In this document: in pieces, positions 6,208-64,000 of the stretch | Layout of the letters: every line of letters starts with the position of its first letter | Numbering within the stretch: the first letter of the stretch is position 1 | Assembly (NCBI RefSeq): GCF_964355755.1 | Contig: NC_092677.1 | Coordinates: forward strand, 1,200,101 to 1,264,100 | Direction: 5' to 3' | DNA from: Antedon mediterranea | Taxonomy: Eukaryota > Animalia > Echinodermata | Length of the DNA: 64,000 nt | Program-made: the position numbers and the translations under genes | Notes under the pieces: generated by a model | Databases searched by the model: none | Told to the model about the DNA's origin: nothing | What the model saw: the letters and a program-made list of their open reading frames with translations, nothing else

Positions 6208-9200
6208 ATGTTTACAAAAATAAATGTGTGTTTCATCCTTATTAACGGTACGTTTATTGATGGAGCTACAATGTAAACTTGTTCAATGGTTTAAGTAGAA
6301 TAACATTTCGAAATACAGGTATATATTTCTTGATTGACAATAGTGGGTTGATTAGTAATAGTTACTGATTTTCATAACTAGACGTAAAGTAAGAGCTTAT
6401 TAAAATGTGCACAATAAATTATTTAAATAATTAAAAATTGATTAATAATTTTCTCCTAGTTTTATTTAGCACATGTACTGGTGTTACTGTAACTATTGAC
6501 AGCTTGGGAGATGTGATTGAAGGATCTGAAACGAAAATGATATGTAACTACAGTCCTACAACTGGTAGCACTGTTATCATATCATGGCGAAATGTCACAG
6601 GAGGGGCATCTGAATCTATAGCAACAACTATTGGGGGTGGAACTAAAACAGTGCAGCCTGCCTACAGTTCTATTTTTAGTCTCGATCCAAATGATGATAG
6701 ACTTCTTGTGATTGCTAACACGTTACGTAGTTACAGAGGTGATTATGAATGTGAGGTTAATAATCTTGATAATCCTCCAATTGACACGGATGTAGTTACT
6801 CTGAATGTTATATGTAAGTTCATTTTATTGTGCAGGAACTATAATTATCTATCTTGTGAAATTCAGAAAATTATAAATAGGCATATTAACTGTATTTTGA
6901 TTACTTTTATTGTTTCTTAAAATATATAAAATATAAGCTTCTAATTAAAAGTGAAATGATTAGGCCTAATAGTTTACTTTTTTGTGGTTTAGTTTACGAT
7001 TGTGGCTATTAATCCCCTATTAATACGTAATGACTTATGTTGTTAATTACTTGATATTTTTAGCATATTTAGTTACTTAGTACAACACTAGATATCATCT
7101 TTAATCAAATGTATGGGGTAGAACCGTTATGTCATCATTTGAGTATCTCATTCTTGACTTACAGATATAGAGGACCCAGTATTAAGTTTTACTACACCTA
7201 TGAATGAGGGTGATCCAGTAGCATTGTCATGTGATGTTGTTTCTAAACCAAATTCTCAGTTAACATTTAAGAAAGATGGATCCATTTTACAGCAAGGAGG
7301 CTCGTCTACTTACACCTTCACTGCGGATCGGAACGATCAAGGGAGTTATACATGTGAGGCAAGTAACAGTGCTGGTACTAAAGCTACTGCTGGTCAGGTT
7401 CTATATGTGTATTGTAAGTGCCTCTATATCATTCACATTTAACTAAAATCCTAAAGAACCATTTCTGCATTAAACTTTGTTTAAATTCTAATTTAACTGT
7501 AATCTATAGATTCTAATTCAACTGTAATCTATATATTATAATATAACTGTAATCTGGATTCTAATTTAACTGTAATCTATATATTATAATATAACTGTAA
7601 TCTGGATTCTAATTTAACTGTAATCTATATATAATATAACTGTAATCTGTATTCTAATTTAACTGTAATCTATATATTATAATATAACTGTAATCTGGAT
7701 TCTAATTTAACTGTAATCTATATATTATAATATAACTGTAATCTGGATTCTAATTTAACTGTAATCTATATATTATAATATAACTGTAATCTGGATTCTA
7801 ATTTAACTGTTATCTATATATTATAATATGACTGTAATCTGGATTCTAATTTAACTGTAATCTATATATTATAATATAACTGTAATCTGGATTCTAATTT
7901 AACTGTAATCTATATATTATAATATAACTGTAATCTGGATTCTAATTTAACTGTAATCTATATATTATAATATAACTGTAATCTGGATTCTAATTTAACT
8001 GTAATCTATATATTATAATCTGTAATCTATAGATTGTAATTTAAATGTAATCTAGATTCCAATGTAACTGTTAATTGTATTAGTTTTGAATGTGTACTGT
8101 ATTATCAAACTATAAAGATATAATGTGTGATGGAGGTGTGCTTGGGGTAAAAACAGCAATTTACCAAAAATAATAATTAAAGATTTTTTTTTCTAAAAAC
8201 ACAAACTCGAAAAATTATTCGGCATAAATATTTTTTAAAGATTTTTTTTTATAAATAAATATGCATTTCCAACAATAATTATTTAACGTTTAAATTAGTC
8301 GCTCCTGAAATTACACCACTAGAAGACATTGAAGTTTCCCGAGGAGAAACTGTTGTGATAAGCTTTGTCGTAGAGGCCAGACCAACTGCTAACTATGAAT
8401 GGTTATCACAAGGAGCAACTGACATTGATAACGACCCAGAAACATTCACATTTGTTGCTTCAAACACCATTGGTGATGTGTATACTGTGACGTTGAATGC
8501 AAGTAATGAGGTGGCAGCAAGACAGTGTTCAGTACAAGTCACTGTTGTAGGTAAGATAAGGTATAACTGGTCTCTCAACAATGTATTCATATACAAAAGT
8601 AATGTTTAAATATTCAAATCAAATCTATATTTATTTTCATACAACAACGACTTTAATAATTATGATATAAGATTTTGTAATAAAACTTCATATTCCTCAA
8701 TAAAAGTACCTTATTTCAACCATGGAGGAAATTCGTTCACTTTTAACGTAACATTAGATTTACTAGACCTAAGAAATGGAACTCACTTCCTAAAAACATC
8801 ACAGATTTATCTACCAAACGCATTTCTATTTTAAAAAGATTGTCTATTTAAACTATAATGTTGGAAACGAATGACAATAAAGAACAGATTTTATTAATTT
8901 TTTTAGATTTAGTTTAGGCCTATTTTGTAGTGACGTTTGTGATGCACTTTTAGAAAACTGTGCTTCATTCACTATTTAGCAACTTTAATTTCGATATGAG
9001 ATATGTTTAAAAAAAAATACAAATACTTGGGGAGGTATTAATAGCGATGTTAAATGTAGGTTATCCGTTAAAAGTGATAGTTTTGTTACGTTGCCTGTTT
9101 CTATAATCAAGTATCTTTTTTTTTTTCAGAAAAGAATACACAAACTGTAAAAGTAGAACCTGATACAATTAAAGTTGGTGAAAACGCAACGTTGACGTGT

Positions 9201-11757
9201 AACTATACAGTTGATTTAGGAGATTTATTGCATCAACTTGACTGGTATAGAGCCGATGCTGACGGCAATCAAGTAGGCAATGTTCTAGTGTCTAAAACAA
9301 GAAAAACGGTAAATGGTCGTTATATATTGTCTACCGATAATGATCTTATAATAACCAATGTTGAAGTAAATGATGACGGTAACTATCTGTGCAGAATTGA
9401 AACAGTTCTTGGACTATATGCTAGTAACAACAATACACTTACAGTACCATGTAAGTACTTAAAAATTCGTCAGCTACTAAAAACTCCATATCCGCCAATT
9501 ATTTAGGCCCATATTCATGGATTGCCAAGTGAGACAGTCAATGCGTGTCACAGTACAAACACAAGATGCTCTTATCTGTTGTACAATGTATTAAAAAGTA
9601 GAGTTTAAAATGTTGTGAGCAAAATCTTGACATCTGACAGGATATAAACACAGATTTGTGTATGCACAATTGACTATTGTATACTACTGGGTACTACTGG
9701 GTACTACTTGGGTGCTTAGCGTCAAATAATGTACGCTAATTAGACGAATAGTTTAAACCCAAAAACCATATATTTTTAGACGAATAAGCCGAATTCTATT
9801 GACTGTACTAAAATTGTGGTATAAATTTCATTTTGAATTACAGACCTAGAAGAACCTGTTCTAAATCCAACCGATATATTCGTCAAGAAAACAAAAACGG
9901 CAACTTTCACATGTAATTTGCCGTCTGGTATTCCAACACCAATTAACATGACGTGGTTAAAATATTGCGACATATTAGATGTGTCTGATACAGATAAATA
10001 TCCGCAATCTAGTACGACATTAATAATTAGTAATGTAAATGAAATAGATGAAGGAATGTATAAGTGTAGAGCTGAGAATGCTGCATACAGCGGAACGGAA
10101 GGACAACTTAGCAATACAGGTAAACTCTGTAAATTAGTACAAAATGAAATTTATCTATTAGTAATAATAGAACGAGACAATAAGCGAAGGAAATATGAAA
10201 GCGAGATAACTTGATTGGTGTTTAGTGGTGTTAGAATTGAGCTAATTTTGAGCTTTCGAATTGCGAAGACCGAGCCCTGTAATAGGACCAACAAAATAGA
10301 CATGCCAATGTTAATTCCTTGTGCGCGGTGCTACACAAGTTTTTGTTTCTAGATCAAATTAGCCAAATCAATGCGTAGATCGTATTTCTATTTGTAAATT
10401 TATATTTTAAGTTAAGGGTGCTACAGATCAAAAACCTTTGCTTGTTTGTGGTTATCCTGTTTTTCACACTTTTATTTTTACCTCGTTTAATATTATTATA
10501 TAGTTATGAAATTTTGTGTGAAAAACAAAGAATACTCAGACTGATCTGATGTAATGAAAACCACTGAATTTTCTTTCTTAGTTTTAAGCAGAGAAGATGA
10601 ACATAAGCACTCAACTGGACTTGTTGTTGGAATGACGTTTGTCGGTGTGTTTATTGGCTGTATGTTAAGTCTGCTTACATTCTTCGTTATCAAAAAACTA
10701 TGACCGGCAAAGGTACAAACAAGTTGAGATTAATTTATTTTACACTTTTTAATGTCTAACCATCACATTTATTTTATAGTAATTATGTGTGAGTCGCATT
10801 TTATAACAGTGTTCATTTGTTTGTTTAAGGTATCTTCAACAAGTGACAACCAATCTGGGGTAAGGAAAGAGCAAGTGATTGTTTCCCTAATTTTTAAAAT
10901 CACGCTTTAATATCTCATGTTTACCGTGAAATACATCATATTTTAATCTTTCTCTTTACATGAAATTACTATAACAACAATAGGAAACAATTACAAACTT
11001 CATTGATATGTAATGATTGGATATCATTTGTAATTTAATTTACCTTTTATTTTGCTGGTACAACAATTCGCAATGCGTGATGTATTTGTAATCGTAATCC
11101 ATAATGGTATATGCAAATATTCCATGTAAGTCAGGATGTGAATTGGTAGTTTGAATAAATAAATAACATGTCGTCGTCTGCGCATGCCTAGTAGCATTAT
11201 ATATATTGTTTGAAGGTTTTTTTCTCACTCCTGAGGACGATCAAAGCATATTGATCGAAACGTGGAAAAACTCAACAGTTCTTTTCAGAACTAATATACG
11301 TGGTGTACCGCAACATTTATATCAACATTATATATAATAGTAATGCTATTTTAAATATCAATTAAAAGATCGTATAAAATAAAAATAGGAAGCCCACGAA
11401 AGAGAAAACAAAGGCATTATCGTTAGAATCGATGTCAGCTTTCAATCACACTCATTATTAGACCACGCAGCACTACCATTAATAAAAAAAGACCTTATAA
11501 AATATTTTTAACGTCATAATCGACACCTTATCGTCATCGATGCAATAAACAATATAGACCTAATGTGAAAACTGTTTAACAATCAGCGCAAAACAATCAA
11601 TATTGTTTTCTTCCTCAAATTGTTATAATACATGATGTTTTTTTTATCGTAGGAATACACAACTTATGTTGGTGAGATGAATCAAAGTACCAGTCACACG
11701 TACGAAGAATTGCAGAAAAAGGATACAAATCAAGTATACGAGAATGTAAAAACTTAG
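6208..11757 (+). CDS. Gene A: five-Ig-domain type-I membrane receptor (SP-V-C2-I-like-V-C2-TM); cytoplasmic tail separated by an in-frame TGA
   Basis: Exons 6208-6247 (MFTKINVCFILIN + VLFSTCTG signal peptide), 6460-6813 (V, YRGDYEC), 7165-7413 (C2, DQGSYTC), 8299-8550 (Ig-like without canonical Cys), 9130-9450 (V, DDGNYLC), 9844-10119 (C2; alternative donor 10128), 10582-10712 (TM GLVVGMTFVGVFIGCMLSLLTFFVI, TGA 10701-10703), 10830-10859, 11653-11757 (EYTTYVGEMNQSTSHTYEELQKKDTNQVYENVKT*). All splice phases are compatible. Confidence 0.85.
7480..8070. repeat. 48-bp intronic minisatellite (ctggattctaatttaactgtaatctatatattataatataactgtaat)n
   Basis: About 11 direct copies, each built from two related subunits sharing aactgtaatct. 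Confidence 0.9.
11215..11335 (+). mobile_element. Probable Penelope-like element end fragment with a degenerate hammerhead-ribozyme-like core
   Basis: ctgagga-c-gatcaa(agcata)ttgatc-gaaacgt at 11231-11263 fits the CUGANGA-stemII-GAAA pattern found in Penelope pseudo-LTRs. Confidence 0.45.
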
Positions 11758-24202: not shown

Positions 24203-24290
24203 GGAGGGGTATATGACTTATATGGACAAGAAGAAATAGACCATACGTACCAAGATTTGCAGATGAAAACCAACAATCAAGTTAAAAAAC
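24203..24290 (+). pseudogene. Relic terminal exon of the Tyr-motif tail
   Basis: tatatgacttat...catacgtaccaagatttgcagatgaaaaccaacaatcaa = YMTY...HTYQDLQMKTNNQ; frameshifted, no AG acceptor, second Tyr lost. Confidence 0.7.
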
Positions 24291-25296
24291 AAATATATAT
24301 CCATGTTTAGATATAGAAAAAGTTAATAGGATATCACAATAACACGAGTCAAGCTGTGGGCTAATAAATTTCAAAAGAAAAAAATTAATTATTTTGAAAT
24401 GAATAAAACACAGACATAGGCCTATTCCTATACAAATAAAAAATAAATTTTAAATCTGAAACTAAATCATGATTTTTTATAGGTAATTTATAAACAAATT
24501 TTCGATATTACTTGTCATATTATTTATTTAATCTTAAAGTAATGTGCATCTTACAGTGCTTTCATATTACCTGAATATTAGAACCAATCTGTTATGTTAT
24601 GTAAATCAAATAAATTTGAGTTGAAGATATTTGTTGTTATGTGAATTTATAATTGCTTTCTTATTTTTATTTTTCATTTCATGAATAAATATCCTCGTTT
24701 GTAAAATTAAAATATATATATATATATTGAACAGTGTTCTCTGTTTCATTTAGAGATGTATTGTCCCTACAATGATTGTGTTTTGTAGTTTTAATAAAGC
24801 TTCTACTTCCGTAGAAAAAAAAAGAAAAAAAAATGTTTGCACTTATACAAATTAAAATAAATTCGAATCAATTTTTGTTCAAAGTGGATAGCTATTATGT
24901 GACATTAAAATGACATATTCAACAACAAATTAAGAATTACTTTTTCAGGGGGAAAATACCTTTAAGGACAGTAAATCGTGATTTTTGTCGCCCTCTCTAT
25001 CAGCTCTCACCTATTATATTTAAAAATCGTCACACCCTTATTATTAGCAATTGCAATCGAGTCATCGCGTTCAACTAAACTCAGTTAAACCGCATTCAGC
25101 TGCATACACAATTTACAGGTTTGTTTATTTTTTTCTCCTAATTACTATACAGAAATGTATAATTTATATCATGATTCAACGTCCAAATGTATATAGTTAA
25201 CAATCAGTATTCTATAATGTACGATAGATTGCAACAGAAGTGAAATGGTTATAAGATTTAAGATTGTATAAATATTCTGATTTGCATTCTTTACAG

Positions 25297-43690: not shown

Positions 43691-45911
43691 ATGGAGGCGA
43701 AAAGTTCAAATGCGATGATTTTCCTTGAAAATATTTCTTCCCTTTTTTCACAAAAAGACGCAATCGTAAATTGCAGTATTTATAATAATTACTGTACAGT
43801 TATTTTTTTAGTTTTAGGTACACATGCAGTAGCAACGTCTGTGACAGTGGGTGGTGATACAGTTAAAGTTGGTGAGGATGCGATGATGACGTGTAGTTAT
43901 ACACTTGTCTTGAATCAACTTGTTTGGTTCAGAGCAGAGGATGATGGTACTTCAGACTTAGGAAACCCTCTGGTATCTTTAGTTGAAACAAGCAATGGTC
44001 GTTATAGCTTATCTAATGACAAGGATCTTATGATAAGTGTCGTTGAAGAAAATGATGCAGGAAATTATCTGTGTAGAATTGTAACACAAAATGTTCAAAT
44101 TGCTGACGACTATGATCAACTTATAGTCCAATGTGAGTATAGGCTAATTCATTGTCAGTGAAGCTATAATCGGTATAGTACTGTTTATAGCAGCTTTTGT
44201 TTGTTTGTTAATAAGCAATCACTAATTAACAACTACATTTCCTAATTTATCTTTTTTGAAATATGTTTTGTTGATTTTACAGTAAATGATCTTGTATTAG
44301 TTAGTTTTTACTTTTATGGCATAATTATTTGATAACATTCAATGTTTTTTACATATTTGTTTTCCTCATAATATTTTTGTTCAATATTTTAGATTTATTA
44401 GTTTTCTTGTCATGTCGACAACTGTTCAGGTGGTCAATGCTTAAAGTAATTTTTACTTATTTTGATCTCCTTTCACACATCCTTTTTCTTTTCTTATAGT
44501 TCGCTTTTATAGTTAAATTATTCTTTTGTTTTTCTAGATGTTTCAGAACTTTTTTTTAAGCCAGAAGAAGGATTATCCATCATGATAAATGACACAGCAA
44601 CATTTATATGTACTTCACTTGATGGTATTCCAACACCGATTACCATAACATGGATCAAAGATGGCAATGAAGTTGATGTTTCTGATACAAACAATGATGT
44701 AGCATTAACGATTAATAAAGTTGCTGAAACAGACGAGGGAGTTTATCAGTGTAGAACAGAGAATGCTGCTTACAGTGGAACAGATGAGAAACTTAGTAAT
44801 AATGCCACACTATCAATAGGTTGGTGAGAATAAACATTTTGATAAATAATATATTGTATTGGCATCATATTATAAGTAGTTTCTACAAGTCATAATTATT
44901 AATGGAATATTCACATTACAGTATATTAGCCTATGCCATGCGGTAAAAAAAATAAAGCACAGCTACAGCGAAATCTGAAAGTTTCAGTTTATTTTAGTAA
45001 TAAAAGGCCTTTTGTAATATGAACGCATGACGTGTTTTATTAATATTGCAATTTTCTATTTCTTTAGCATTAACGACGACTTCTTTTATATCCAGTAAGT
45101 CAACTACACGTATATTTTGCTTGCATGCATTGAATTGTAAATTTCCGGGTTTTTGCTTTTGCGAAAAGAAAAAAGGGATAGAAATGGAAAGGGATATCCC
45201 CGCTCCATCTCATGATTAGTATCACGCTTAAAAAGGAAAATAATGATGACCTTTGTACATTGTCAACACTACATTATTGTAAACATGTTTAAAACACATG
45301 GAAACACTTAGCCTTCTGTATTATTTGGTTTTAAATTTTTTTAAATACAGAAGTTCCAAAGAAAGAGAATGATTGTAATTCAATTGGTCATGTTGTTGGA
45401 ATGACGTTTGTTGGTGTGCTCATTGGATTCATTATCTGTTTGCTTGTGGTTTTTATCATCAGCAAAATCAGGAAGTCACATGCACAGGTAAAGTATAATT
45501 CAGAAAGTAGAACCAAAAGCAAAAGTGCAGACTTGAAATGACCAAAGGTTTAATGAAATACCGCACACTCAAGTAATGGAAACTATTTAAGCATGAAATT
45601 TGATTTTAATTTAAAGGTACCTACATCGAAAAATACCAACCAATCAGGGGTAAAGATGTTAATCTAATTATTCAATTTCACTCATCATAATTAGTATTAT
45701 TACTATTGCCACCAATATATCAATAAAGGTTTACACGATAATTGTTTTTTTGCATGCACTAAACTGTTGTATTTTTTTTTAGCAGCAGGCGTATATGACT
45801 TATACTGGAGAGACAGATAAAAAAACAAACCACACATACCAAGATTTACAGAAGAAAGACGATAATCAAGCTGTATATGTAAATGTTAAAGCAAAAAAAG
45901 ACAACAAATAA
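43691..45911 (+). pseudogene. Gene E: IgV-IgC2 receptor paralogue (V subtype beta) with deleted signal-exon donor but open reading frame
   Basis: ATG 43691 reads in frame through the former intron into V (43812-44132); C2 44538-44819; 45068-45094; TM 45351-45487; 45617-45649; 45783-45911 (..HTYQDLQKKDDNQAVYVNV..). About 35 bp including the donor is missing versus gene H (57486-57521); 12-nt in-frame deletions in V and C2. Functional status uncertain. Confidence 0.75.
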
Positions 45912-49600: not shown

Positions 49601-50211
49601 TTCTGTGTTATTTGTTCAGTTTTAAGTACAGAAGTTCCAAAGAGAGAGAATGATTGTACTTCAACTGGTCTTGTTGTTGGAATGACGTTTGTTGGTGTGC
49701 TCATTGGATTCATTCTCTGTTTGCTGGTGGTTGTTATCATCAGCAAAATAAGGAAGTCACATGCAAAGGTAAAGTATAATTCATAAAGTAGAACCAAAAG
49801 CAAAAGTGTAGACTTAAAATTACCAAAGTTTAATGAAATACCGCACACTTAAGTAATAGAAACTATTTTAACATTAAATATGATTTTTTATTTTGAAGGT
49901 ACCGACATCGAAAAACACCAACCAATCAGGGGTAAGGATGTTACTTCAACTTTAAGTATTCAATTTCACTCGTCGTCGTCATCACCATCATTATTATCAC
50001 TATTGCCACCAATATATCAATAAAGGTTTACACAATTTTCATTCTTTTTTTTGCATGCACTAAACTTTTGTATTTTTTTTAGCTGCAGGCGTATATGACT
50101 TATACTGGGGAGACAGATAAAGAAACAAACCACACATACCAAGATATACAGAAGAAAGAAGATAATCAAGCTGTATATGTAAATGTTAAAGCAAAAAAGG
50201 ACAAAAAATAA
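46604..50211 (+). CDS. Gene F: intact IgV-IgC2 type-I receptor with ITAM-like/YVNV tail (V subtype alpha)
   Basis: Exons 46604-46643 (MMTFCLLLFVLVF), 47974-48300, 48823-49113, 49354-49380, 49620-49768, 49899-49931, 50083-50211 (LQAYMTYTGETDKETNHTYQDIQKKEDNQAVYVNVKAKKDKK*). Frame open. Confidence 0.9.
46720..47513. mobile_element. Probable non-autonomous DNA transposon in gene F intron 1, with an internal approx. 310-bp direct repeat
   Basis: Absent from the paralogous intron of gene D (aaacccatt|ttccgcattg); short inverted ends tattagtc/gactaata; 46738-46985 repeated at 47050-47295. Confidence 0.6.
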
Positions 50212-51687
50212 TATACATGTTTAAAATAAAATGAAAGAAATACATCAGTATTATTATTCTTATTATTAATGGAATATCATTGGTTTGAAACTACAATCAC
50301 ATACATCTTGTAGAAAGTGTTTTCTTTCTCTTGAACGCGTACAAATTTAATAACAAGAAATGTGAATGCTGTAATTTGTATTATCATTAACTAAACAAAA
50401 TATACACAAGTACCTATAGTGACATAAAATATACCAATATTATATAGAAACATGTGATATAAAGATGAAAACCACAGACATACTTGAAAAATGTAAAAAA
50501 AAAGATATGTAACTAACAACGATACATTTATTAAAATATTACTTTCTATTTTTGATTTTTTTTTAATTAAAACTTGCTTGTATTAGACCGACTTTGATTC
50601 GTTACTTTGATTTTAATGTTTGAATGCATTAGTACATTGACATATAATGACATACTAGAATAGACTAGACAATCAATTCTTTTAACACGCGTGTAATTGT
50701 ATTATTGTTATATAGCATTCTTTAATTTAATTCGCCTCGAGATGTGCTTTGGTTGCTTGCTGCCATATTTTTTCAAAGAGTTTAGTAATGATCAAATTGT
50801 TTTTTAAACGTACAAACTAAATTCTAGGGACAAATTGGACGGAGGTTTTAAAGTTATGTGCGATTCCGGCTCATTTCTTTTTTAGGGAAGACATTAAGAA
50901 ATACCTATAAAAATAGTAAATAGTAGTTTGAACTACTTACTGTATAAATACAATTTTTAAAAGGCTAGGTGTTTTATGATTTTATTTTAAATAATTGATA
51001 CTATTAAAAAAGAATAATTGTATCATCTTGATTTGGACGGAAGTACAGTGCACTATAATTATGAAGGAAGTAAAACTAATATATCACAAGTATGAATGGC
51101 AATCCAGAATCATAACAACGACAGGAACAATCAATACTTCAGTATACAATACAGTATAGTGTGGTAGAGTGCAAGACAATAATAGTGAAATAGTCATCAC
51201 CTAATAAAGCGGAAAAGATTTCCATATTTTACAGATTTGTAATGGAGGCGAAAAGTAAAAATGCGATGATTGTAAGTACAAAATTATTTAAAATATTTTT
51301 TCACACAATGACGCAATCGTAAATCGTTAATAGCTATTTTGTTTAATTTATTTTCAGATACAAGTGGAAAGTTTGACAATGTAACAATGATGTGCACTCC
51401 TACATTTGTTACAGGAGATTCGTTGCTTCAACTGGTTTTGTCAAAAGTTAATGTCAGTGGTCAACAAGAAGCTAGCTAGCTAGGCCTTCTTGCAGTACAG
51501 AAGTACAGAGCAAAGATCGTTAAAAAAAAGATGCCATGCCCTTTAAATCATGCACAGAAGAGGGCGGTGTTTCGCCTTACTACAAATAATGTACTAATAA
51601 AGTTGCATTTCCTTCTTGTAAATAGATTGCTGTGAAGATGAAGAGTGTTTCAATTCACTAAACTAAACCTATACTATTAAGCATTCT

Positions 51688-52008
51688 CTATTATATAACA
51701 CCTATATAAATTCCTGTCATTTGATTGGACGAATGTGGGTCACATGGCGTGCAATAGTACGCACTATTCAACGATCGTTAAATAGTACTTTTTGAAACAT
51801 TTTTGTGTACGAAAAAAAAACGTCTAGATGTTATATAAAACAAATAATGAATGTTTTGTATTCGTGTAATGGTACAAATAATGGCACTTGGTGAATGATG
51901 AAAGGTTATATCAACTCGGCTTTGCCTCGTTGATATAACCTTTCATCATTCACCTCGTGCCATTATTTGTACCATTGCACTCATAAACATTCATTATTTG
52001 TATAATAG
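51688..52008. mobile_element. Non-autonomous element with a long internal hairpin
   Basis: Ends ctattata..tataatag; approx. 75-bp arms 51841-51916 / 51929-52000 around cggctttgcctcg. Confidence 0.65.
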
Positions 52009-54381
52009 TTCATAAACTTTGATGATTTGAACAGTTATTAACTAAATATATTTTGCTTGTAAAGTAAATATATCTCTATTTATGGTAGGTTTATGGCACG
52101 TCAGGATGGACATACATAGTCATGTCCGTCCTAGCATGCCATATATGTTCAAACGCTAGTTTATAGGTTAGCTATAAAATACTGTAAAGGCCTGTAACAT
52201 CGTGACAGTACTCATGCTGCTTTAATGTCGCTGTGCTACTAATTGTGAAAATACAGTAGTTATATATACATATATGTTTTCAGTATTTTTTGTTTGTGTT
52301 GTTTGCATTTCCTATAATTTTGTTTCCAGAAATGACAAAAAAAAAACTCTCTTGACATCAACACAATGTTTAATAAATGGTAGGCCTACTAGACATACAG
52401 CACATGTTTGTAGCAAGCTATCTTTAAATATAAGTAACAAGCTTTATCTTTTATAACACCAAATCAACGTAGCTACCCTAAACTAAAAAAAAAACATGCA
52501 ATAAAAGTGCACAATATGCAGTATTTATAATAATTACTGCACAATTTTTTTTAGTTTTAGGTACACATGCACAAACTACATCTGTGACAGTGGGTGGTGA
52601 TACAGTTAAAGTTGGTGAGGTTGCGACGATGACGTGTAGTTATACACTTCAAGCGGAGATGTCTTGAATCAACTTGTTTGGTTCAGAGTAGATGATGGAA
52701 AAAACTATCTCGTATCTTTAGTTGAAACAAGCAATGGTCGTTATAACTTATCTAATGACAAAGATCTTATGATAAGTAATGTTGAAGTAAATGATGCAGG
52801 AAATTATTTTTGTACAATTTAGACACAAACGTTTCAAATTGCTGACTACTATGGTGAACTTATAGTCCAATGTGAGTTTGTCATTTCTTTGTCATAAAAG
52901 TTAAATACACAAACTCTGTTCGACAATCTTCAAATTACAATAAATAATTATAATTAAAAATTATCAAAATGAAAATAAAGCTGTGTTTATGGTATTACAT
53001 TTAATAGTCAAATTGTCTATTACACCGCAGATCTTGACACACCAGTTGTGACTCCAGCTCAATTGTCTGAGCTGCCAATATGGATGAAACAGCATTGTTT
53101 TCTACTGTACCTGTTGGATTCCCAACATCAATTACCATCACATGGATCAAAGATGACGTCGAACTTTATGTTTCTGATATAGAAAAGTATCCGTTTTCTG
53201 ATGCAACATTAACGATAAAGAATGTAAATGAGACAGATGCAGGAAGTTATAAGTGTATAGCAGAGAATGCTGCTTACATGGGAGAAGAAGGAAAAGGTAG
53301 TAATACTGCCACACTGTCAATGGGTTGGTTGGAAAACAAACTTGTTATAACTGCTGATACAGCAATATCATATTTTATTGATATTTTCTACAAGGACCAA
53401 ATTGCCTTTCATAATAATTGGTTAATATTCCTATTATGTTACGTGGTAATGAAAATGAAGCACAGCTACACAACAAAAACTGTTGGAAGTTGGGGGAAAT
53501 GTTTGGAAAAAGAAAGGGAAATGTTTTAATACTGATTGGTGTGAAACGATATTCTTTTTTTTTTAGTTATAAAAGGCTTTTTGTGATATGACGTGTTACT
53601 AATATTGCTTGTTTCTCTATTTCTTTAGCACTGACGACAACATCTTTTATATCCAGTAAGTCAACTACACGTAGGTTGTGTTTTTTTGTATTGTATTGTG
53701 TAAATTTCCGGGTTTTTGCATTTGCGAAAAGAAAAAAGGGATAGAAATGGGAAGGGATATCCCCGCTCCATCTCATGATTAGTATCACGCATTAAAAGGG
53801 AAAGTAATGATGACCTTTGTATATTTGTCAACACTAAATTATTGTAAACACGTTTAAAGCACATGGAAACACTAATCCTTCTGTATTATTTGTTCAGTTT
53901 TAAATACAGAAGTTCCAAAGAGTGAGAATGATTGTAATTCAACTGGTCTTGTTGTTGGAATGACGTTTGTTGGTGTGCTCATTGGATTTATTATCTGTTT
54001 GATTGTGGTTTTTATCCTCAGCAAAATAAGGAAGTCACATGCACAGGTAAAGTATAATTCAGAAAGTAGAACCAAAAGCAAAAGTGTAGATTTAAAATTA
54101 CCAAAGGTTTAATGAAATACCGCACACTTAAGTAATGGAAACTATTTTAACATTAAATATGATGGTTTATTTTGAAGGTACCTACATCGAAAAACACCAA
54201 CCAATCAGGGGTAAGGATGCCATACTTCAACTTTAAGTATTCACTTTACTCATCAACATCATCCTTATCATTTATTATTATTACTCTTGTCACCAATATA
54301 TCAATAAAGGTTTGCACGATTTTCATTCTTTTGTCATGCAATAAACGTTGTATTATTTTTTGCACAGGCGTATATGACTTA

Positions 54382-54823
54382 GCCCCTTTCACACAGAGCT
54401 GTAAGACGGTAATATTGCGGTAATTTGCGAACGCCGGCTTATGTGTGAAAGGGTAAAAACCCCTTAATGCCGGCTTCCGTTAGACCGCCTCTGGACCTGG
54501 TAAAATTGCGGTAATATTACCGTCACGGTCGTAAGCCTGAGTCCACGATATAACGCCTGCTTACGCAGTGAAGCAAGGCAAAGAATATAATATTCTTTGA
54601 GCAAGGATAAATTCGGGACATTTTCCTTGATTGAGAAAGACTGTGGCAATTACTTTAGGCCAAATTATTTGATTATATCCATTATATATATATATATTTT
54701 TAGGTTAGTTTGTAAATAATACAATGGAAGAATACGGCCAATAATAATAAAAATATAACAGATGTTGGTCCAAAGATTATTTAACTTGCTGTAACGTACG
54801 TAAGCCTAGGCCCTAGTTAGCAT

Positions 54824-54858
<35 letters not shown>

Positions 54859-55780
54859 CAGATTTCAGATAATATTTATTTAGATAATAATGAATGAATA
54901 TATACAAAATAGAAAAAAGATATTAAAGTGAACATAGATAAAGCAGTAATAATTGGTAGTCATTATTATCATGGATCCCTTCTAGAAGTTAAAAACTTGT
55001 CTCGTAGGGACCCACAACAAAACACATTACTAAAAAAATAAAAATAACCTAGAATATATAATTATATAATTTAGGATAAAAAATTACAGTATAATAACAT
55101 AACTAACATCTTCTTTATAAAAATTATTTAAATTATATTTCAATAATTTCATGATAATAGTTCTAGCAGGAACATCCTCCGGTGCGCGCTCCCGGTGCTA
55201 GCTCATACCGTAACAGCTTCTGATAATTAAATTCGCGTCTATTTGTAGGCCTAATAGATTTTGTTTCTGTAGAATGGCCATCACGATCGGGCCGTTATTA
55301 GCACGGAGTGGTGTTGGAGCGCGCACCGGCGGATGTTCCTGCTAGGACTATGCTAACTAGGGCCTAGGCTTACGTATACAACGTTACAGCAAGTTAAATA
55401 ATCTTTGGACCAATGGCAATATATGTTATATTTTTTTTATTATTGGCCGTATTCTTCCATTGTATTATTTACAAACTAACCTAAATATATATATATGGAT
55501 ATAATCTAATAATTTGGCCTAAAGTAATTGCCACAGTCTTTCTCAATCAAGGAAAATGTCCCGAATTTATCCTTGCTTCACTGCGTAAGCAGGCGTTATA
55601 TCGTGGACTCTTTCACACAGATCAGGCTTACGACCGTGACGGTAATATTACCGCAATTTTACTAGGTCCAGAGGTGGTCTAACGGAAGCCGGCATTAAGG
55701 GGTTTTTACCCTTTCACACATAAGCCGGCGTTCGCGAATTACCGCAATATTACCGTCTTACAGCTCTGTGTGAAAGGGGC
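54382..55780. mobile_element. Foldback MITE (PIF/Harbinger-like) inserted in the terminal exon of gene G
   Basis: TIRs gcccctttcacacagagctgtaagacggtaatattgcggtaa.. extend about 440 bp (54382-54825 vs 55347-55780) plus inner arms 55163-55200 / 55310-55346; TTA TSD at 54379-54381 and 55781-55783. Confidence 0.9.
54826..55156 (-). mobile_element. Short poly(A)-tailed retroposon 3' fragment nested in the MITE
   Basis: T33 tract at 54826-54858, interrupts one arm of the palindrome, flanked by an atagtt-like duplication. Confidence 0.65.
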
Positions 55781-56055
55781 TTATATGACTTATACAAGAG
55801 TATATGACTTATACAAGAGTATATGACTTACACTGGAGAGACGGATAAAGAAACAAACCATACATACCAAGATTTACAGAAGAAAGACGATAATCAAGCT
55901 GTATATGTAAATGTTAAAGCCAAAAAGGGCAAAAAATAATATACATGTTTAAAATAAAAATTAAATAAATATATTATCATTATCATTATTCTTATTATTA
56001 ATGGAATATCATTATAATGGTTTGAAACTACAATCCTTCTGTATTACTTGTTCAG

Positions 56056-56631
56056 TTTTAAATACAGAAGTTCCAAAGAGTGAGAATGATTGTAATTCAA
56101 CTGGTCTTGTTGTTGTAATGACGTTTGTTGGTGTGCTCATTGGATTCATTATCTGTTTGCTTGTGGTTGTTATCCTCAGCAAAATAAGGAAGTCACATGC
56201 AAAGGTAAAGTATAATTCATAAAGTAGAACAAAAAGCAAAAGTGTAGACTTAAAATTATCAAAGGTTTAATGAAATACCGCACACTTAAGTAATGGACAC
56301 TATTTTAACATTAGATATGATGTTTTATTTTGAAGTTACCTACATCGAAAAACACCAACCAAACAGGGCCATGGGTAAGGATGTTACTTCAACTTTAAAT
56401 ATTCACTTTACTCATCATAATCATCATCATTTATTATTACTATTGTCACCAATATATCAATAAAGGTTTACACGATTTTCATTCTTTTTTCATTTTTTTT
56501 AGCAGCAGGCGTCAATGACTTACACTGGAAAGACAGATAAAGAAACAACCCACACATACCAAGATTTACGGAAGAAAGAAGATAATCAAGCTGTATATGT
56601 AAATGTTAAAGCCAAAAAGGGCAAAAAATAA
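56056..56631 (+). pseudogene. Orphan TM + cytoplasmic-tail module of the Ig receptor family (no leader or Ig exons)
   Basis: Exons 56056-56204 (stalk+TM), 56336-56374, 56503-56631 (QQASMTYTGKTDKETTHTYQDLRKKEDNQAVYVNVKAKKGKK*), all in frame; joined directly to the 3' UTR of gene G. Confidence 0.8.
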
Positions 56632-58492
56632 TGAATGTTAAAATAAAAATAAATAATTTTTATTATGAATTGGTTTAAATCTTCAATCACATACCTCTTG
56701 TTGATATTATTATAGAAATAAAGAGAAATCATAATCTGTAGAAAGTGTTTTCTTTTCTCTTGATGTAACTCTTTAACGCGTACCGTACAAATTTAATAAC
56801 AAGGAAATGTGAATGCTGCAATTTGTATCATCATTAAAAAAAAAACCTATATATATTTTTTTTTTCTTACGGGTAGGCCTACATTGACATAATAAATGAC
56901 TATACCAGGAAAATAAATTAGACAATCAATGCTTTTAACACCAATACGCGTGTAATTTATATTATCATAGCGTTATTTAATTCAATTTAACTTTGAGATG
57001 TGCATTTGGTTGCTTGCTGCCATATTTTTTCAAAGAGTTGAGTAATGTTCAAATTTGAAACGGAAAAATTTAATTATAGGTACAAATTGGACGGAGGTTT
57101 TAAAATTGGATGCGATTGAGGTTCATTTCTTTTAAAGAAAGACCATCAAGAAAGTTTGCACTGTTTGAACGCATTGTATAAATAAGGCCTAAAACCATGT
57201 GTTTAAATAATGGTTACTAATTGAAAAGATTAATTTGATCAACTTGATTTGGACGAAAGTACAGTGCACTATAATTATGAAGGAAGTAAATACCTGTACA
57301 ATATATCACAAGTGTGAATGGCAGTCATGACAAAGAAAGGAACAATCAATATTTCAGTATACGATGTTAGAGTATGGTAGAGTACAAGACAATAGTGAAA
57401 TAGTCATCACCTAATAAAGTGGAAAAGATTTCCATATTCTATAGAATTGCGATAGAGGTGAAAAGTTCAAATGCGATGATTTTCCTGATTATTCAACTTT
57501 GTGGATGTAAGTACAAAATATTGAAAATATATCTTCCCATTTTTCACAAAAAGACGCAATCTTAAATTGCAGTATTTATAATAATTACTGTACAGTTATA
57601 TTTTAGTTTTAGGTACACATGCACAAACTTCGTCTGTGACAGTGGGTGGTGATACAGTTAAAGTTGGTGAGGATGCGGCGATGACGTGTAATTATACACT
57701 TCAAGCGGGAGATGTCTTGAATCAACTTGTTTGGTTCAGAGCAGAGGATGATGGTACTCCAGAGTTAGGAAACCCTCTGGTATCTTTAGTTGAAACAAGC
57801 AATGGTCGTTATAGCTTATCTAATGACAAGGATCTTATGATAAGTGTCGTTGAAGTAAATGATGCAGGAAATTATCTGTGTAGAATTGTAACACAAAATG
57901 TTCAAATTGCTGACGACATGATCAACTTATAGTCCAATGTGAGTATAGGCTAATTCATTGTCAGTGAAGCTATAATCGGTATAGTACTGTTTTTAGCAGC
58001 TTTTGTTCGTTTGTTAATAAGCAATCACTAATTAACAACTACATTTCCTAATTTATCTTTTTTGAAATCTGTTTTGTTGATTTTACAGTAAATAGAGGTA
58101 GAGGGCGCTTCATGGTGGTTGGACGTGTTTCTGAAGTTGTAAAAGTTTTGAGTCTTGTTTGCTGGTTTTGTATAGTTTATAGTTACATAAAGTCTCCATT
58201 ACTCTTCTTATTGCTACAAATGTAGCTTAAGCCCTTGTATTATTCGATTTATCTTTCGATTGGAGAGATTTTTTGAGATTGTCTTTGCTAGGCCTGTGTT
58301 TGTGGTTGGACGAATATCTGTTATCGGAAAGTCTTTGAATCTTGTTTGCTAGTTTACTTTCATATCATTATCATTCCTATTCTTATGGCTTCAAATTTCT
58401 GCTTGAGCTCTTACTGTATTCTAAGGACTGGTAAGATTTTTATTTTTTAGATTGTCTTTCGCTAGGCCTAGGGTTGTGTAAGCAGTTAGGGC

Positions 58493-59377
58493 ATGGCTTC
58501 CAAAAGCAAAGATCAAGGTGCCAGGCCAAAGCCTAGATCACGTAATGCAAGAGGCACAGTTGATAAAACGGTAGTAGATATCGAGGGTGAAGACGAATGT
58601 GGTTCATGTGGTGGCCATTTTATGTCTGGTGGCAAATCGGTTTTATGCGGTCTTTGTAAGCTATGGTTCCACATAGATTGTCAGAAAATTAATGAAGCCA
58701 AATATAAGTGGCTATCCAAAGATGACTCATCCATTTTTTGGTACTGTAGGAGCTGCTCAGTCTCAGTAGGCAATTTCATGGGTCTTATTAATAATGTTAA
58801 TGAGACACAAAAAACCATGATTAAAACAATTGAAGCAATTAAATCTGAGGTAGAGATCAATAAAGAGGATATTAAAAAGTTATTCCAGTCATCTAGTGTT
58901 GTTAATAATGAGGATGTTAAGACAATAATTGAAAATAGAATTAAGGATGAAAATGAGAGATTGAAAAGAAAATCTAATTTGATGCTATATAGAATAGATG
59001 AGTCCAAGAGTAATGACTCAGATAGAAGAAAAAATGATGACCTCAGTAAATTGGCAGGTATTTTCGAGGATATTGACCTAGAGGTCGAAATGAGAACATT
59101 TTTCCGGGTGGGTAAACACAGAGAAGATGGGTGCCGCCCTATAAAGGTAGTTTTCAAGAAGGAATGTATCAAAAGAGATGCCTTTGAAATTGCTATACAA
59201 AAAAAGTGCGCAGTAAGTAATGATAGAACAATAAAGGAACGTGATGAGTATAATAAACTTAGGGACATATTGAGGGATAGGCAAAGCAAAGGGGAAAAAG
59301 ACTTGGTAATTAGAAGGGGGAAAATAACTCGGTTTCGTTCCCAAAGCACTACCCAATCGGAAGAGAACACTGCCTAA
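58493..59377 (+). CDS. LINE ORF1 protein with PHD finger and coiled coil
   Basis: C-x2-C..C-x2-C-x4-H-x2-C..W-x-C-x2-C (CGSC, CGLCKLWFHIDC, WYCRSC), then coiled coil and RKSNLMLY..RVGK..RPIKV as in CR1-clade ORF1. Confidence 0.9.
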   Translation: MASKSKDQGARPKPRSRNARGTVDKTVVDIEGEDECGSCGGHFMSGGKSVLCGLCKLWFHIDCQKINEAKYKWLSKDDSSIFWYCRSCSVSVGNFMGLINNVNETQKTMIKTIEAIKSEVEINKEDIKKLFQSSSVVNNEDVKTIIENRIKDENERLKRKSNLMLYRIDESKSNDSDRRKNDDLSKLAGIFEDIDLEVEMRTFFRVGKHREDGCRPIKVVFKKECIKRDAFEIAIQKKCAVSNDRTIKERDEYNKLRDILRDRQSKGEKDLVIRRGKITRFRSQSTTQSEENTA

Positions 59378-59423
59378 CAATGTAAGTTCTACGCAGTCAG
59401 AAGATGTTAATGATTTTTTTAAT

Positions 59424-62288
59424 GTGTTTTATACAAATTGTGATTCCCTTCTAAATAAGAAGAATGAGCTTCTGTTGCGTTTATCTTCAGAGAAAGTAGA
59501 TATCATTGCTTTGACTGAGATTCTACCAAAGAAGTACTTTTTTGAATTGTCTATAGAGGAGTTTCATATCCCTGGTTTTCAGATGTTTTTGCCAAATGAA
59601 AAGCTTTCATCTGGTAGAGGAGTTGTTATTTATGTTCGAAATGGGATGTCTGCCACTCCGGTTTTGTTTAAAGATATTTTGTTTGAGGAATCCATGTTTG
59701 TTGAGATTAAAGTCAAGGATCGCACCTTTTTAATTGGATGTGTGTATAGAAGTGACGCCGGATCTAGTGTCAATAATTCTGCTTTGTGTTCTCTGTTTAG
59801 AAAAGTGGCATCCTTTTCTTGTTCTGATTTGATTATAGTTGGAGATTTCAATTATAGGAGTATTAATTGGGAGCTAGGATATGTGACTGGTGAAGATGGT
59901 AAAAATAGTCATAATTTTTTCGACACCATTAATGACTTATTTTTAGCTCAGCATGTACGAGACCCAACCCGTTACAGAATAGGAGAACAGGCCAATGTTC
60001 TGGACCTGGTACTTACATCTAATGAGGATTCTATTAGTGAGGTCCTTCAAGCTCCACCATTAGGTAAGAGTGATCATATGGTACTTCAATTTAAAATTCC
60101 AGTTAATTTAATCAAAGAAGAGGTGGTAGAGGTTAGAAATTATTTCCATGCTGATTATGATAAGTTTCGTGGTTTTCTTGATGGTGTCGATTGGGACACT
60201 GAGTTATTGGATAAGGACGGGTTACACTCGCACGGTTCTTTTGATGAGATCTTATCTAGAGGTATGGAACAGTTTGTTCCAAAGTGTAAGAAACACTTGT
60301 CTGGAAATGTTAAGAGACCTTTGTGGTATACTAAGGAGGTTGATAAGTCTATTAAACAGAAGAATAAATGCTGGAAACAGTATATCAAAGCAAAACGTAA
60401 AGGGCATGACTGTGCTTGTGTCAAATGGAACACGTTTATTAGAGTAAGGAATGATACTGTCAATTTGATTAAGAGTTCTAAAAGCATCTTCGAAAATAAG
60501 ATTGCAAATGAGGTTAAAGTCAATGAAAAGTCTTTTTGGCGCTATGTAAATTCTCAGTTAAACACCAGATCTGGTATTCCTACTCTTAGAAATGTTGAAG
60601 GTAAACTTGTTGTAGATGACCAAGATAAAGCCGAGTCTTTTAATTCTTTTTTTAGCAGTGTCTTTTGTAAGGAGAACTTATCGAATGTTCCGAATCTTGA
60701 TAAAAAGATTGAGGCTTCTTTGTCAGATATTGAGTTTAATGTAGAAGATATTCATAAGCTGTTGTCTAACTTAGTTATAGATAAGTCAGCTGGCCCTGAT
60801 GGCTTTCACCCACGGGTTTTGATTGAATTAAAGGATCAAATTGCTTACCCTCTCAGTCTAATATTCACTAGATTATTCAATGATCAGAAGGTCCCTCTAT
60901 CGTGGAAGGAGGCAATTGTAATACCTATATTTAAGAAAGGCAAAAAGGAGGACCCGGCTAACTACAGACCGGTTAGTTTAACGTCGGTCATAGGGAAAAT
61001 GATGGAAAGGATTAATAGGGATAAACTTGTAATGTATCTTGAGAGTAATGGTCTTTTGTGCAATGAGCAATTTGGATTCAGACAAGGTAGATCATGTGCA
61101 TTACAACTACTTGATGTCCTGGAGAGTTGGACTACTAACCTGGATAACCATGATAGCTTTGATTGTGTCTATTTAGACTATAAAAAGGCCTTTGATAGTG
61201 TGCCACACCAAAGGCTTCTAGTCAAATTGAAAGGTTTTGGTATTACGGGAAATCTACTAGGATGGTTCTCTAATTATTTGTCAAATAGAACACAACGAGT
61301 TAGTGTCAATGGTCAATTGTCATCACAGGCTCCAGTATAAAGTGGAATTCCACAGGGTAGCGTTGTGGGCCCAATCTTATTTTCAATCTTCATTAACGAT
61401 TTACCTGATGTTGTCGAATCTAGTATACGTTTATTTGCAGACGACACCAAGTTGTATAGAAAGGTCAATAACATTGATGATGCAGATTTATTTCAAAGAG
61501 ACATTGACAGTGCTTCCCATTGGTCTAATGTTTGGCAATTGCCTTTTAATGACACTAAGTGTAAGGTATTTCATTATGGTCGTGATAATCCCAATTTCTT
61601 GTATTCAATGGCTGGTAATTTACTACATGAGGTAAAGCAGGAGAAAGATCTAGGTGTTACCTTTGATCATAGTTTAATCTTTAATTTGCATGTAGCGGAT
61701 ATTTGTAAAAGAGCTAATAAGAAACTAGGAATGATTTATAGATCTTTTAAATTCTTGAATAAAGATGGATTTTTGAAGCTGTATAAGTCTATTGTCAGGC
61801 CAACGCTTGAATATTGTAACACTGTTTATAATCCTATTAGAAAACGAGATCAGGATGAAATAGAGAAGGTCCAGCAAAGAGCAACAAGATTGATTCCTAG
61901 GTACCGTAATATTCCTTATGAACAACGTTTGAGAATTCTTGGTCTTCCTACCATGAGATATCGAAGGCAGAGAGCAGATATTATCCAAGTTTTTAGGATT
62001 GTTAAAGGTTTCGATCGTATTTCGATCAACACATTTTTTGAATTTGATCTAGAATCTCGGACCCGTGGACACCCATATAAACTCAAGTTTAAAAGCTCTC
62101 GTCTTAATATTAGGAGGGACACGTTCTCCAGGAGAGTTATTCTCTTATGGAATACTCTGCCTATGGATGTAGTTTCATGTGCTACGGTGAACTTGTTCAA
62201 AGCAAAACTTAACGTCGCATGGTCTAACCACCCGCTGAAGTTTTCACCCTATATAGAATATGATTTTATTGCTAAGAGGGGCTTTTAA
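59424..62288 (+). pseudogene. LINE ORF2 (AP endonuclease + reverse transcriptase) with a single in-frame stop
   Basis: APE motifs (LTE, VYRS, GDFN, LDL, SDH) and RT motifs (NYRPVSL, DYKKAFDSV, SGIPQGS, FADD, KDLG); ORFs 59424-61340 and 61365-62288 are in the same frame separated by TAA 61338-61340. Confidence 0.92.
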
Positions 62289-62649
62289 GCACTGAGTGCT
62301 TCGCCTCGATCCCGTAGACGAAAGTGTACGGGAAACAAGTAAACAAGTAAATGATCTTGTATTAGTTAGTTTTTACTGTTATGGAATAATTATTTAATAA
62401 CATTCAACGTTTTTTACATATTTGTTTTCCTTTTTTTTTTTCAATATTTTAGATTTATTAGTTTTCTTGTCATGTCGACAACTGTTCAGGTGGTCAATGC
62501 TTAAAGTAATTTTTAATTATTTTGATCTCCTTTCACACATCTTTTTTCTTTTCTTATAGTTCATATATCTGTTCATTTAGTTCAATATGTGGAAAATAAA
62601 TAAATGAAACAAACAGTTATACACATAACTTGTTAGACAATTCATTTTT

Positions 62650-63271
62650 AGACTTTCAGACCTTATCTTGATATCAGTTTAATCTAAGTCAATTTTTCAC
62701 AGTATATTCCTTATGGCCAGGAATCGATGTGGTTATGTTTTCACGGTGCGCAATAAAAAATTACGCGGTCTACGCACGATTTAACGAAATCACGTTTGTA
62801 ATCATATCTTCAATACCATGAATCACAATTAAAAAAAATTTGGTACTCATAAATTTCAGGGCATAAATCATCATATGGCAATACAATTACGTACGTAGCG
62901 CATGTAACGCATGCGTACGCGCGCTTAAAATTTTCAAAATTTATTTGCGATGAAATAAGAGTACGTTTCAGGCAATTTTAAGCGTTTACAAAATTGCCAT
63001 GAGTCCGCAGATTTTTGCGCGCGCACTGCGCGTTAAATGTTGTTACGCACTCTTTTTGCCCGATTTCTGTTTTCTTGACTTACTTTTCAACTCGAAATTA
63101 CGTTATACGAGCACGTCAAAAGTGACAGGCTACGCACTTGTAAATTAAAAAAATATAAATGTTTTTAAACATTTCAACATTTTTAAACATGTTCAGTAAT
63201 TTCGGTCAATTGGTCGGTCGGTCGGTAAACACTAATGAGCACGCGACTGCATCCATCTATATGGCCTTGTT
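62650..63271 (+). mobile_element. Helentron-associated element lacking its 5' module
   Basis: Reverse complement of 42238-42846; ends agcacgcgactgcatccatctatatggccttgtt. Confidence 0.75.
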
Positions 63272-64000
63272 TTTCTAACAATTACTTTTAAACACTAGGC
63301 CTAATGTAAACATGATAAAAATCCTGTGTTGTGCTTGTATAGTAAGATTATTCTTTTGTTTTTCTAGATGTTTCAGAACCTTTTTTTAAGCCAGAAGAAG
63401 GATTATCCATCATGATAAATGACACAGCAACATTTATATGTACTTCACTTGATGGTATTCCAACACCGATTACCATAACATGGATCAAAGATGGCAATGA
63501 ACTTGATGTTTCTGATACAGACAAGTATCCGTCTTGTGATGTAGCATTAACGATTAATAAAGTTGCTGAAACAGACGAGGGAGTTTATCAGTGTAGAGCA
63601 GAGAATGCTGCTTACAGTGGAACAGATGGGAAACTTAGTAATACTGCCACACTATCAATAGGTTGGTGAAAATAAACATTTTGATAAATAATATATTTTA
63701 TTGGCATCATATTATAAGTAGTTTCTACAAGTCATAATTATTAATGGAATATTCATATTACAGTATATTATGTCATGCGGTAACAAAAATAGAGCACAGC
63801 TACAGCAAAATCTGAAAGTTTCAGTTTATTTTAGTAATTAAAGGCCTTTTGTAATGTGAACGCATGGCGTGTTTTATTAATATTGCAATTTTGTATTTTC
63901 TATTTCTTTAGCATTAACGACAACTTCTTTTATATCCAGTAGGTTTTGCTTGCATGCATTGTATTGTAAAGTTTCAGGTTTTTGCATTTGAGAAAAGAAA

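Follow-up and report, generated by a model that had tools for sequence, protein, structure and literature searches.

Tandem IgV-bearing receptor genes of the feather star Antedon mediterranea as a putative activating arm of a crinoid paired-type receptor family

Echinoderm immunity is known mainly for the expanded TLR, NLR, SRCR and SpTransformer families. Paired receptors of the immunoglobulin superfamily (IgSF) with opposite tyrosine motifs are described for vertebrates, Hydractinia and Botryllus (PMC5112662; bioRxiv 2022.03.04.482883; PMC12065747). A stretch of 64,000 nucleotides from the genome of the feather star Antedon mediterranea (contig NC_092677.1, positions 1,200,101 to 1,264,100, forward strand; the window) carries a tandem array of type-I receptor genes with V-set domains, and it poses the question what these receptors are and whether they belong to such a paired system. 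Our favoured answer is that the window genes probably represent the activating arm of a paired-type family of innate recognition receptors in crinoids. What the sequence shows directly is the anatomy of the genes, a tail shared by most of them and a mosaic pattern of divergence, and A. mediterranea gene models with nearly the same V domain bear either immunoreceptor tyrosine-based inhibitory motifs (ITIM) or the motif YVNV.

Architecture of the cluster and its shared tail

Six-frame translation, self-tblastn and reading of most of the window revealed eight tandem receptor loci (A to H) and relics, all on the plus strand (Table 1). This upholds an earlier note, made from the sequence alone, which had proposed at least eight related type-I receptor loci plus relics on one strand. 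Exon models were set by coordinate and then translated; in these models the introns of A, B, C, D and F are GT-AG throughout, Ig and EGF exons have phases 1-1, and linker and tail exons phase 0. Pfam found Ig families in all 13 Ig exons submitted and EGF in both EGF exons submitted, and it does not separate C2 from I-set domains. The B-strand Cys, the C-strand Trp and the F-strand Tyr-x-Cys are invariant in the eight window V exons aligned, and these canonical residues, the two-sheet V fold and the Pfam support identify V-set type-I receptors. The differing ectodomains that had been claimed, V-C2-I-V-C2 (A), V-EGF6 (B), V (C) and V-C2 (D, F), are confirmed by exon models and Pfam, and intact genes are indeed mixed with pseudogenes: B, C, D and F are open and represent three architectures, E is doubtful, and A, G and H are broken. 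Locus A is interrupted by one in-frame TGA directly after the transmembrane (TM) helix (codon 538 of 586), and E has lost the donor of its signal exon, its frame being open only by intron read-through from the ATG at 43691. G carries frameshifts, a stop and a transposon inside its tail exon, and in H the first ATG of the signal exon is altered, the V exon is frameshifted, a long interspersed nuclear element (LINE) occupies the V-C2 intron and the TM exon lies past the window end.

The claims on the C-terminal parts stand with exceptions. TM exons of the proposed GLVVGMTFVGV type are close in A, D, E, F, G and an orphan TM-linker-tail block (G'), whereas those of B and C are distant (44-46% identity over 27-39 amino acids to family proteins); related tyrosine tails are likewise found in A, D, E, F, G and G', but the tail of B, with the sites YNEI, YANK and YET, is remote, and C ends in a short exon without tyrosine. 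The linker exons, given as 30-39 nt, measure 30 nt (A), 33 nt (B, where the exon is duplicated, and D, E, F, G) and 39 nt (G'). In B the 33-nt exon is tandemly duplicated with its flanks (20706-20889, 98% identical), permitting alternative or double in-frame inclusion. The TM helix encoded at 41428-41576 and those of paralogous TM exons repeat a Gly-x3-Gly spacing, a common helix-dimerisation pattern.

The pattern Yxx[L/I]-x8/9-YxNV occurs in six tail exons of the window (A, D, E, F, G, G'; YEEL-x8-YENV in A), and a YxxY pair precedes it in A, D, E, F and G and is absent in G'. Its tyrosines align across Antedon and Anneissia, even though the full-length Anneissia proteins are only 38-41% identical to P0003 (XP_071959085.1; P-numbers denote relatives obtained in searches). 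In all four tails tested the motif with YxN arose in 0.01-0.05% of 20,000 shuffled tails, for a pattern chosen after viewing the tails. YVNV is the classical GRB2-binding site of LAT (PMC2194190), and most ITAM-like (immunoreceptor tyrosine-based activation motif) Xenopus Ceacams are accompanied by YxN sites (PMC5112662). By motif, the shared tail is ITAM-like and GRB2-type, and the six tails fit the ITAM pattern if its last position is V. A strict ITAM, defined as Yxx[I/L]x6-9Yxx[L/I] (bioRxiv 2022.03.04.482883), followed by YMNV is present in the relative P0080, and this suggests that the tail motif may be built of repeated YxxL units with a GRB2 site at the end. None of the six TM helices of A to F contains a charged residue (Lys, Arg, Asp or Glu), so signalling would use the receptor's own tail and not an adaptor; an adaptor-using activating receptor of the KIR/LILR/SIRP/CD300 type was rejected on this ground.

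Divergence along the genes is uneven. D and E are 69% identical in V, 77% in C2, 81-92% in the downstream introns, 91% in TM and 92% in the tail, D and F are 88% identical in V, 79% in C2 and 90% in the next intron, and the four loci D, E, F and G resemble one another much more closely in the 3' block than in the ectodomain. Since synonymous divergence shows the same gradient from the ectodomain to the 3' block, recombination of older exons onto a homogenised back-end would account for it rather than selection alone, and the ectodomain exons, being more divergent than adjoining introns, are pointing to exon shuffling. The C2 exons of F, D and G group with different A. mediterranea genes (support 88/96, 93/77 and 94/81). 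The idea that the D to H paralogues are no mis-assembled haplotypes held for D, F and G, where haplotype duplicates were rejected because exons are 72-93% identical and the C2 exons pair with different genes. The E/H pair is ambiguous: at 94-98% identity in exons and introns it could be a very recent duplicate or haplotype-derived, and it shows 17 non-synonymous versus 1 synonymous changes over V and C2 (Fisher p = 0.051), in genes that may be dead.

Crinoid relatives and an ITIM-tailed paralogue

With the V exon of D as query, three proteins were retrieved among 356 candidates, all from A. mediterranea and 80-84% identical, and P0003 as query retrieved 14 among 2667, 11 from A. mediterranea and three from Anneissia japonica, hence crinoid in all 14 cases. 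P0003 repeats the D/F architecture including stalk, linker and tail, and RefSeq models generally reproduce the exon structure of the window. All 12 A. mediterranea clusters were each on a contig of length 28,587,047. A profile search over 1.84 billion representatives at 50% identity, of which the best 150 matches were screened by script and 14 short or family-like ones inspected, was dominated by long multi-Ig proteins that score by their repeats; the short matches contained the further unnamed family members P0080, P0085, P0092, P0103, P0142, P0143, P0152 and P0166. Ectodomains are recombined here as well: P0078 carries a V domain of the A1/B type ahead of a family C2, and P0150 is V-V-Ig-Ig-EGF-TM. 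P0123 (1419 aa) starts with a family V-C2, continues with a long Thr-rich stalk and ends in what appears to be an adhesion-GPCR-like seven-TM region; it may be either a real fusion or a mis-joined model. In Anneissia P0009, P0011 and P0013 the V domain has no B-strand cysteine, a residue retained by the V domains of the Antedon window.

The AlphaFold model of P0003 contains two Ig domains with blocks at a predicted local distance difference test (pLDDT) score of 87-98, one TM helix and a disordered tail. The sequence search of the PDB returned generic Ig repeats only, Foldseek matches to solved structures were generic Ig neighbours at 19-28% identity, and the Atlas likewise yielded no more than generic Ig neighbours. 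A conserved orthologue of a cell adhesion molecule (CAM) such as JAM, NCAM, Robo, Dscam or contactin was rejected, as no one-to-one match was found and all 14 close relatives are crinoid; the proposal of a lineage-specific, fast-turnover IgSF receptor cluster thereby gains in substance. RefSeq labels for the family are scattered (sax-3-like, JAM-B-like, peroxidasin-like, lachesin-like), and because these names are unrelated to one another the family is invisible in the annotation. Neither the family nor paired IgSF receptors in echinoderms were described in the literature searched, whose scope was main texts other than the sea urchin and amphioxus repertoire papers. The sea urchin immune-repertoire papers of 2006 and papers on amphioxus V-region receptors may mention similar genes. 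We conclude that this is a real, apparently undescribed crinoid receptor family.

A hint at a paired system comes from other A. mediterranea gene models. The models P0002 (XP_071958243.1) and P0005 (XP_071958242.1) combine a V-C2 ectodomain of the D/F type with a different TM class (class 2) and a tail with ITIMs and an immunoreceptor tyrosine-based switch motif (ITSM). All three tail tyrosines of P0002 lie in a motif, VTYAQV and LTYVEV as ITIM and TTYSSV as ITSM, and at least two ITIMs occurred in 0.16% of shuffled P0002 tails. At the protein level P0002 is 96% identical in V and 81% in C2 to the YVNV-tailed P0003, and its V is 85% identical to that of D and 80% to that of F; such highly similar V domains on opposite tails occur among these A. 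mediterranea models and were not seen within the window. The class-2 TM recurs in P0034 behind a C-type V with a short tail, the ectodomain being 72% identical to the class-1 protein P0008. In a tree of V and C2 with 16 rows (P0010, P0014, P0016 and window B, C, G and H left out) both class-2 genes have a class-1 gene as their sister (P0002 with P0003, 98/95; P0034 with P0008, 100/99), and a single class-2 clade is rejected by the approximately unbiased test (p-AU 5e-67). Judged from these sequences, two findings appear to be new, namely an ITIM/ITSM-tailed A. mediterranea paralogue which shares a near-identical V with a YVNV-tailed member, and a second ectodomain type that likewise occurs with both TM classes (P0034/P0008). 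Because of the ITIM-tailed paralogue with its near-identical V, the immune reading gains support. For comparison, Xenopus paired Ceacams share 80-93% identity (PMC5112662).

Reads from four runs, two of which represent one sample, were compared with 39000-58500, the region of D to H. Contigs of the runs cross-map among paralogues and depth sums paralogues and repeats, so depth was not used for copy number or polymorphism. Only run X9 has joints that fall no more than 2 nt from the exon borders between TM and linker and between linker and tail, and its contigs start or stop at exon borders (44132, 53031). No matching run was labelled as RNA in the run search; X9 is presumed to be RNA, and it has the same species label as X1, the best-matching run.

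Weighing the readings

For the proposed receptor system we infer ligand, partners and cell type. The N-terminal V domain would bind a microbial or altered-self ligand, and once receptors cluster, the tail with YxxL/I-x8/9-YxNV would be phosphorylated by a kinase of the Src family. GRB2 would then dock at the YxN site and possibly a kinase of the Syk/Shark type at the tandem tyrosines, driving uptake or activation, and paralogues with the same V and ITIM/ITSM tails would recruit SHP-type phosphatases and dampen the response. Tailless forms (C, A if expressed, P0034) would serve as decoys. Through unequal crossover and exon exchange, specificities would be swapped onto a constant signalling block, with pseudogenes as a by-product.

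Several observations weigh against this reading. On the activating side, the strict ITAM is absent from all seven window loci with a tail exon and from the tail relic at 24207-24310, because the second motif ends in Val. On the inhibitory side, the ITIM tail comes from a single predicted RefSeq gene, in two of its three isoforms, tblastn found no credible class-2 TM exon or ITIM tail within the window, and a C-terminal search found only P0002 and the short-tailed P0034 among 239 candidates. The ITIM regular expression is loose and also matches P0080 and the YVNV tails of Anneissia, so signalling polarity deduced from motifs is uncertain. The X9 pieces are about 11-14% divergent from the exons of the window and perhaps derive from other paralogues or alleles; X9 is for this reason taken to hold spliced transcripts of the family and not expression of these loci. 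Of 21 V-exon pairs, 20 have a ratio of non-synonymous to synonymous substitution rates (dN/dS) under 1, the values being 0.35-0.9 except for E/H, which does not establish positive selection. The enrichment of variable positions in the CDR-like loops BC, C'-D and FG (43/71 versus 91/245) is weak evidence in favour, since every Ig domain would be expected to vary there, and the front CC'C''FG face shows no such enrichment (p = 0.13). Finally, the top Foldseek match is an adhesion molecule, mouse JAM-A (E 4e-14, 22-24% identity).

A wider version of the paired-receptor reading, which we put forward tentatively and hold to be possible, though short of probable, is that a complete paired-receptor complex arose independently in crinoids and is the first one in echinoderms. 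Exon shuffling and conversion would move V specificities between back-ends of the activating (ITAM-like/GRB2), inhibitory (ITIM/ITSM) and decoy kinds, and modules would also have been grafted onto EGF stalks and onto the mucin-stalk seven-TM receptor P0123. If true, this would place a signal balance in the style of natural killer and myeloid cells in a basal deuterostome without adaptive immunity. The paired-receptor reading itself, if confirmed, would fill the ambulacrarian gap, with a balance of ITAM-like and ITIM signals rebuilt on a new receptor scaffold. B, D and F together with the ITIM-tailed paralogue provide concrete genes for asking whether such signalling predates chordates.

By analogy, the mode of action would resemble that of vertebrate paired receptors, and the organisation resembles that of Hydractinia Alr and Botryllus FcoR. 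CEACAM1/CEACAM3, the Xenopus Ceacams, and also Siglec, SIRP, CD300, LILR and teleost NILT likewise form clusters of IgV(-C2) genes with pseudogenes. The CEACAM N domain has no disulfide, whereas the window V domains have both cysteines; the fold match to CEACAM1 is only 19% identical, and EGF arrays serve as alternative stalks in Antedon. Xenopus Ceacams resemble the Antedon receptors in that nearly the same V domain is joined to ITIM/ITSM or to ITAM-like tails, and in that the signal motif, with a GRB2 YxN site, lies in the receptor's own tail (PMC5112662); however, the ITAM-like YxxL motifs of CEACAM are split by phase-0 introns (PMC5112662), while the Antedon tail motifs lie in one last exon. 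Membership in the CEACAM family was rejected for the single last exon and the two V cysteines. Hydractinia Alr, as described in bioRxiv 2022.03.04.482883, is an invertebrate cluster of single-pass IgSF receptors with one domain per exon, pseudogenes, exon shuffling and ITAM as well as ITIM tails, but its V and I domains are without canonical motifs, mostly with an Fn3-like spacer, and its tails are highly divergent; the window genes have canonical V-set motifs, no Fn3 and conserved tails. Botryllus FcoRs are type-I receptors of an invertebrate deuterostome with IgV and C2 domains, ITIM or activating tyrosine motifs and gene-content variation (PMC12065747), yet they carry a sushi domain and are paired with fester genes, and neither sushi domains nor partner genes were seen in the window.

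Alternatively, the cluster might be an expanded adhesion or guidance family (V-C2 of the JAM/CTX/IgLON kind) acting in nerve, epithelium or regeneration, with GRB2-type tails that signal growth or migration and not defence, which we consider unlikely. The two-domain V-C2/I ectodomain is shared with JAM/CTX molecules, the V-C2 fold fits each of JAM-A, NCAM, Dscam and CEACAM1, the Atlas places HEPACAM, fasciclin-3 and MCAM among the neighbours alongside CD22, Siglec and CEACAM, and YxNV is a generic GRB2 site in tails that fail the strict ITAM pattern. However, solved CAMs are only 19-28% identical and close relatives are crinoid only, and at least three of eight loci are broken, with tails swapped between ectodomain types. 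Broken copies and tail swapping are rare in conserved CAMs. JAM tails end in a PDZ-binding motif, whereas the window tails end basic or polar, in genes that are multicopy with pseudogenes and 22-24% identical to JAM.

Less probable still is a self/non-self complex in allorecognition or gamete interaction, in which a polymorphic V would bind conspecific ligands and ITAM-like and ITIM tails would integrate the signals. Against it, likely A. mediterranea counterparts stay 80-91% identical in V and C2. Feather stars are solitary, and we know of no natural fusion. The idea draws on Alr, whose clustered IgSF genes include pseudogenes, show exon shuffling and encode both ITAMs and ITIMs (bioRxiv 2022.03.04.482883), and on FcoRs, which bear IgV and C2 domains with ITIM or hemi-ITAM (hemITAM) tails (PMC12065747).

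Of slightly lower probability again is a neutrally churning array of one or two functional genes and decaying copies, with motifs devoid of regulatory meaning and E/H as an assembly duplicate: three loci (A, G, H) are broken and a fourth (E) is doubtful, G' and several relics amount to fragments, paralogue dN/dS is often 0.5-1 and E/H are nearly identical also in introns, but four genes with three architectures are open, tail tyrosines are retained in two genera, RefSeq models match the exon structure, X9 holds spliced contigs, and the blocks before E and H (D versus G'), at 88-93%, are less identical than E/H.

Further features of the window

Table 1. Positions of receptor loci, relics and mobile elements in the window (SP, signal peptide; TM, transmembrane; TIR, terminal inverted repeat; ORF, open reading frame; RT, reverse transcriptase)
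Feature	Position	Strand	Structure and exons
Upstream continuation of cluster	1..2680	+	five whole and one partial B-type EGF exons
Relic of V1 exon of A	1758-1860	+	upstream region
Further EGF exon	about 2571-2680	+	upstream region
Locus A	6208..11757	+	SP-V-C2-I-V-C2-TM-linker-tail; SP 6208-6247, V1 6460-6813, C2 7165-7413, I 8299-8550, V2 9130-9450, C2 9844-10119, TM 10582-10712, linker 10830-10859, tail 11653-11757
Locus B, open, 462 aa	15372..21621	+	SP-V-EGFx6-TM-linker-tail; SP 15372-15420, V 15790-16149, six EGF 16365-18219, TM 20435-20568, linker 20706-20738 (second copy near 20857-20889), tail 21544-21621
Relic of D/A-type tail exon, frameshifted	24207..24310	+	
Locus C, open, 196 aa	25297..27122	+	SP-V-TM-short tail; SP 25297-25354, V 25605-25955, TM 26563-26705, last exon 27084-27122
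Locus D, open, 331 aa	39179..42008	+	SP-V-C2-stalk-TM-linker-tail; SP 39179-39218, V 40084-40410, C2 40618-40908, stalk 41163-41189, TM 41428-41576, linker 41712-41744, tail 41880-42008 (YQDL-x9-YVNV)
Locus E	43691..45911	+	V 43812-44132, C2 44538-44819, stalk, TM 45351-45487, linker 45617-45649, tail 45783-45911
Locus F, open, 331 aa	46604..50211	+	SP-V-C2-stalk-TM-linker-tail; SP 46604-46643, V 47974-48300, C2 48823-49113, stalk, TM 49620-49768, linker 49899-49931, tail 50083-50211 (YQDI-x9-YVNV)
Relics	51242..51467	+	signal exon and truncated D-type V exon
Locus G, pseudogene	52555..55940	+	V 52555-52871 and C2 53031-53323 (both frameshifted), TM 53898-54046, linker 54178-54210, tail exon split by TIR element
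TIR transposon in G tail exon	54381..55781	unassigned	1.4 kb, 160-nt terminal inverted repeats
G', orphan TM-linker-tail	56056..56631	+	TM 56056-56204, linker 56336-56374, tail 56503-56631
Locus H, pseudogene or incomplete	57452..63938	+	V 57607-57938, C2 63368-63661, stalk 63912-63938
LINE in V-C2 intron of H, near-complete	58490..62285	+	PHD-finger ORF1, endonuclease-RT ORF2

The cluster runs beyond both ends of 6208..63938, with EGF exons and relics at 1-2680 and with H leaving the window. The region 1-2680 represents the 3' part of another locus, its B-type EGF exons having eight cysteines and one of them an in-frame TAA, and two stalk-like mini-exons were noted by eye near 1917 and 2387, upstream of A. 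No tRNA genes were found in the window. The 12-kb gap between C and D contains a candidate Thr-rich, mucin-like exon with AG/GT ends (35377-35466) and no family match, which sits within nested inverted repeats (30205-31654 / 36367-38193).

The TIR element in G, which by its target site we take to be Harbinger-like, lies at a TTA site, and short tandem repeats of the start of the G tail exon come next. The LINE in H, whose ORF2 carries one in-frame stop, is a passenger and no part of the receptor. A 3' LINE fragment in an intron of B (19082-19854) is 90% identical to it, and another RT fragment lies near 22550-23900.

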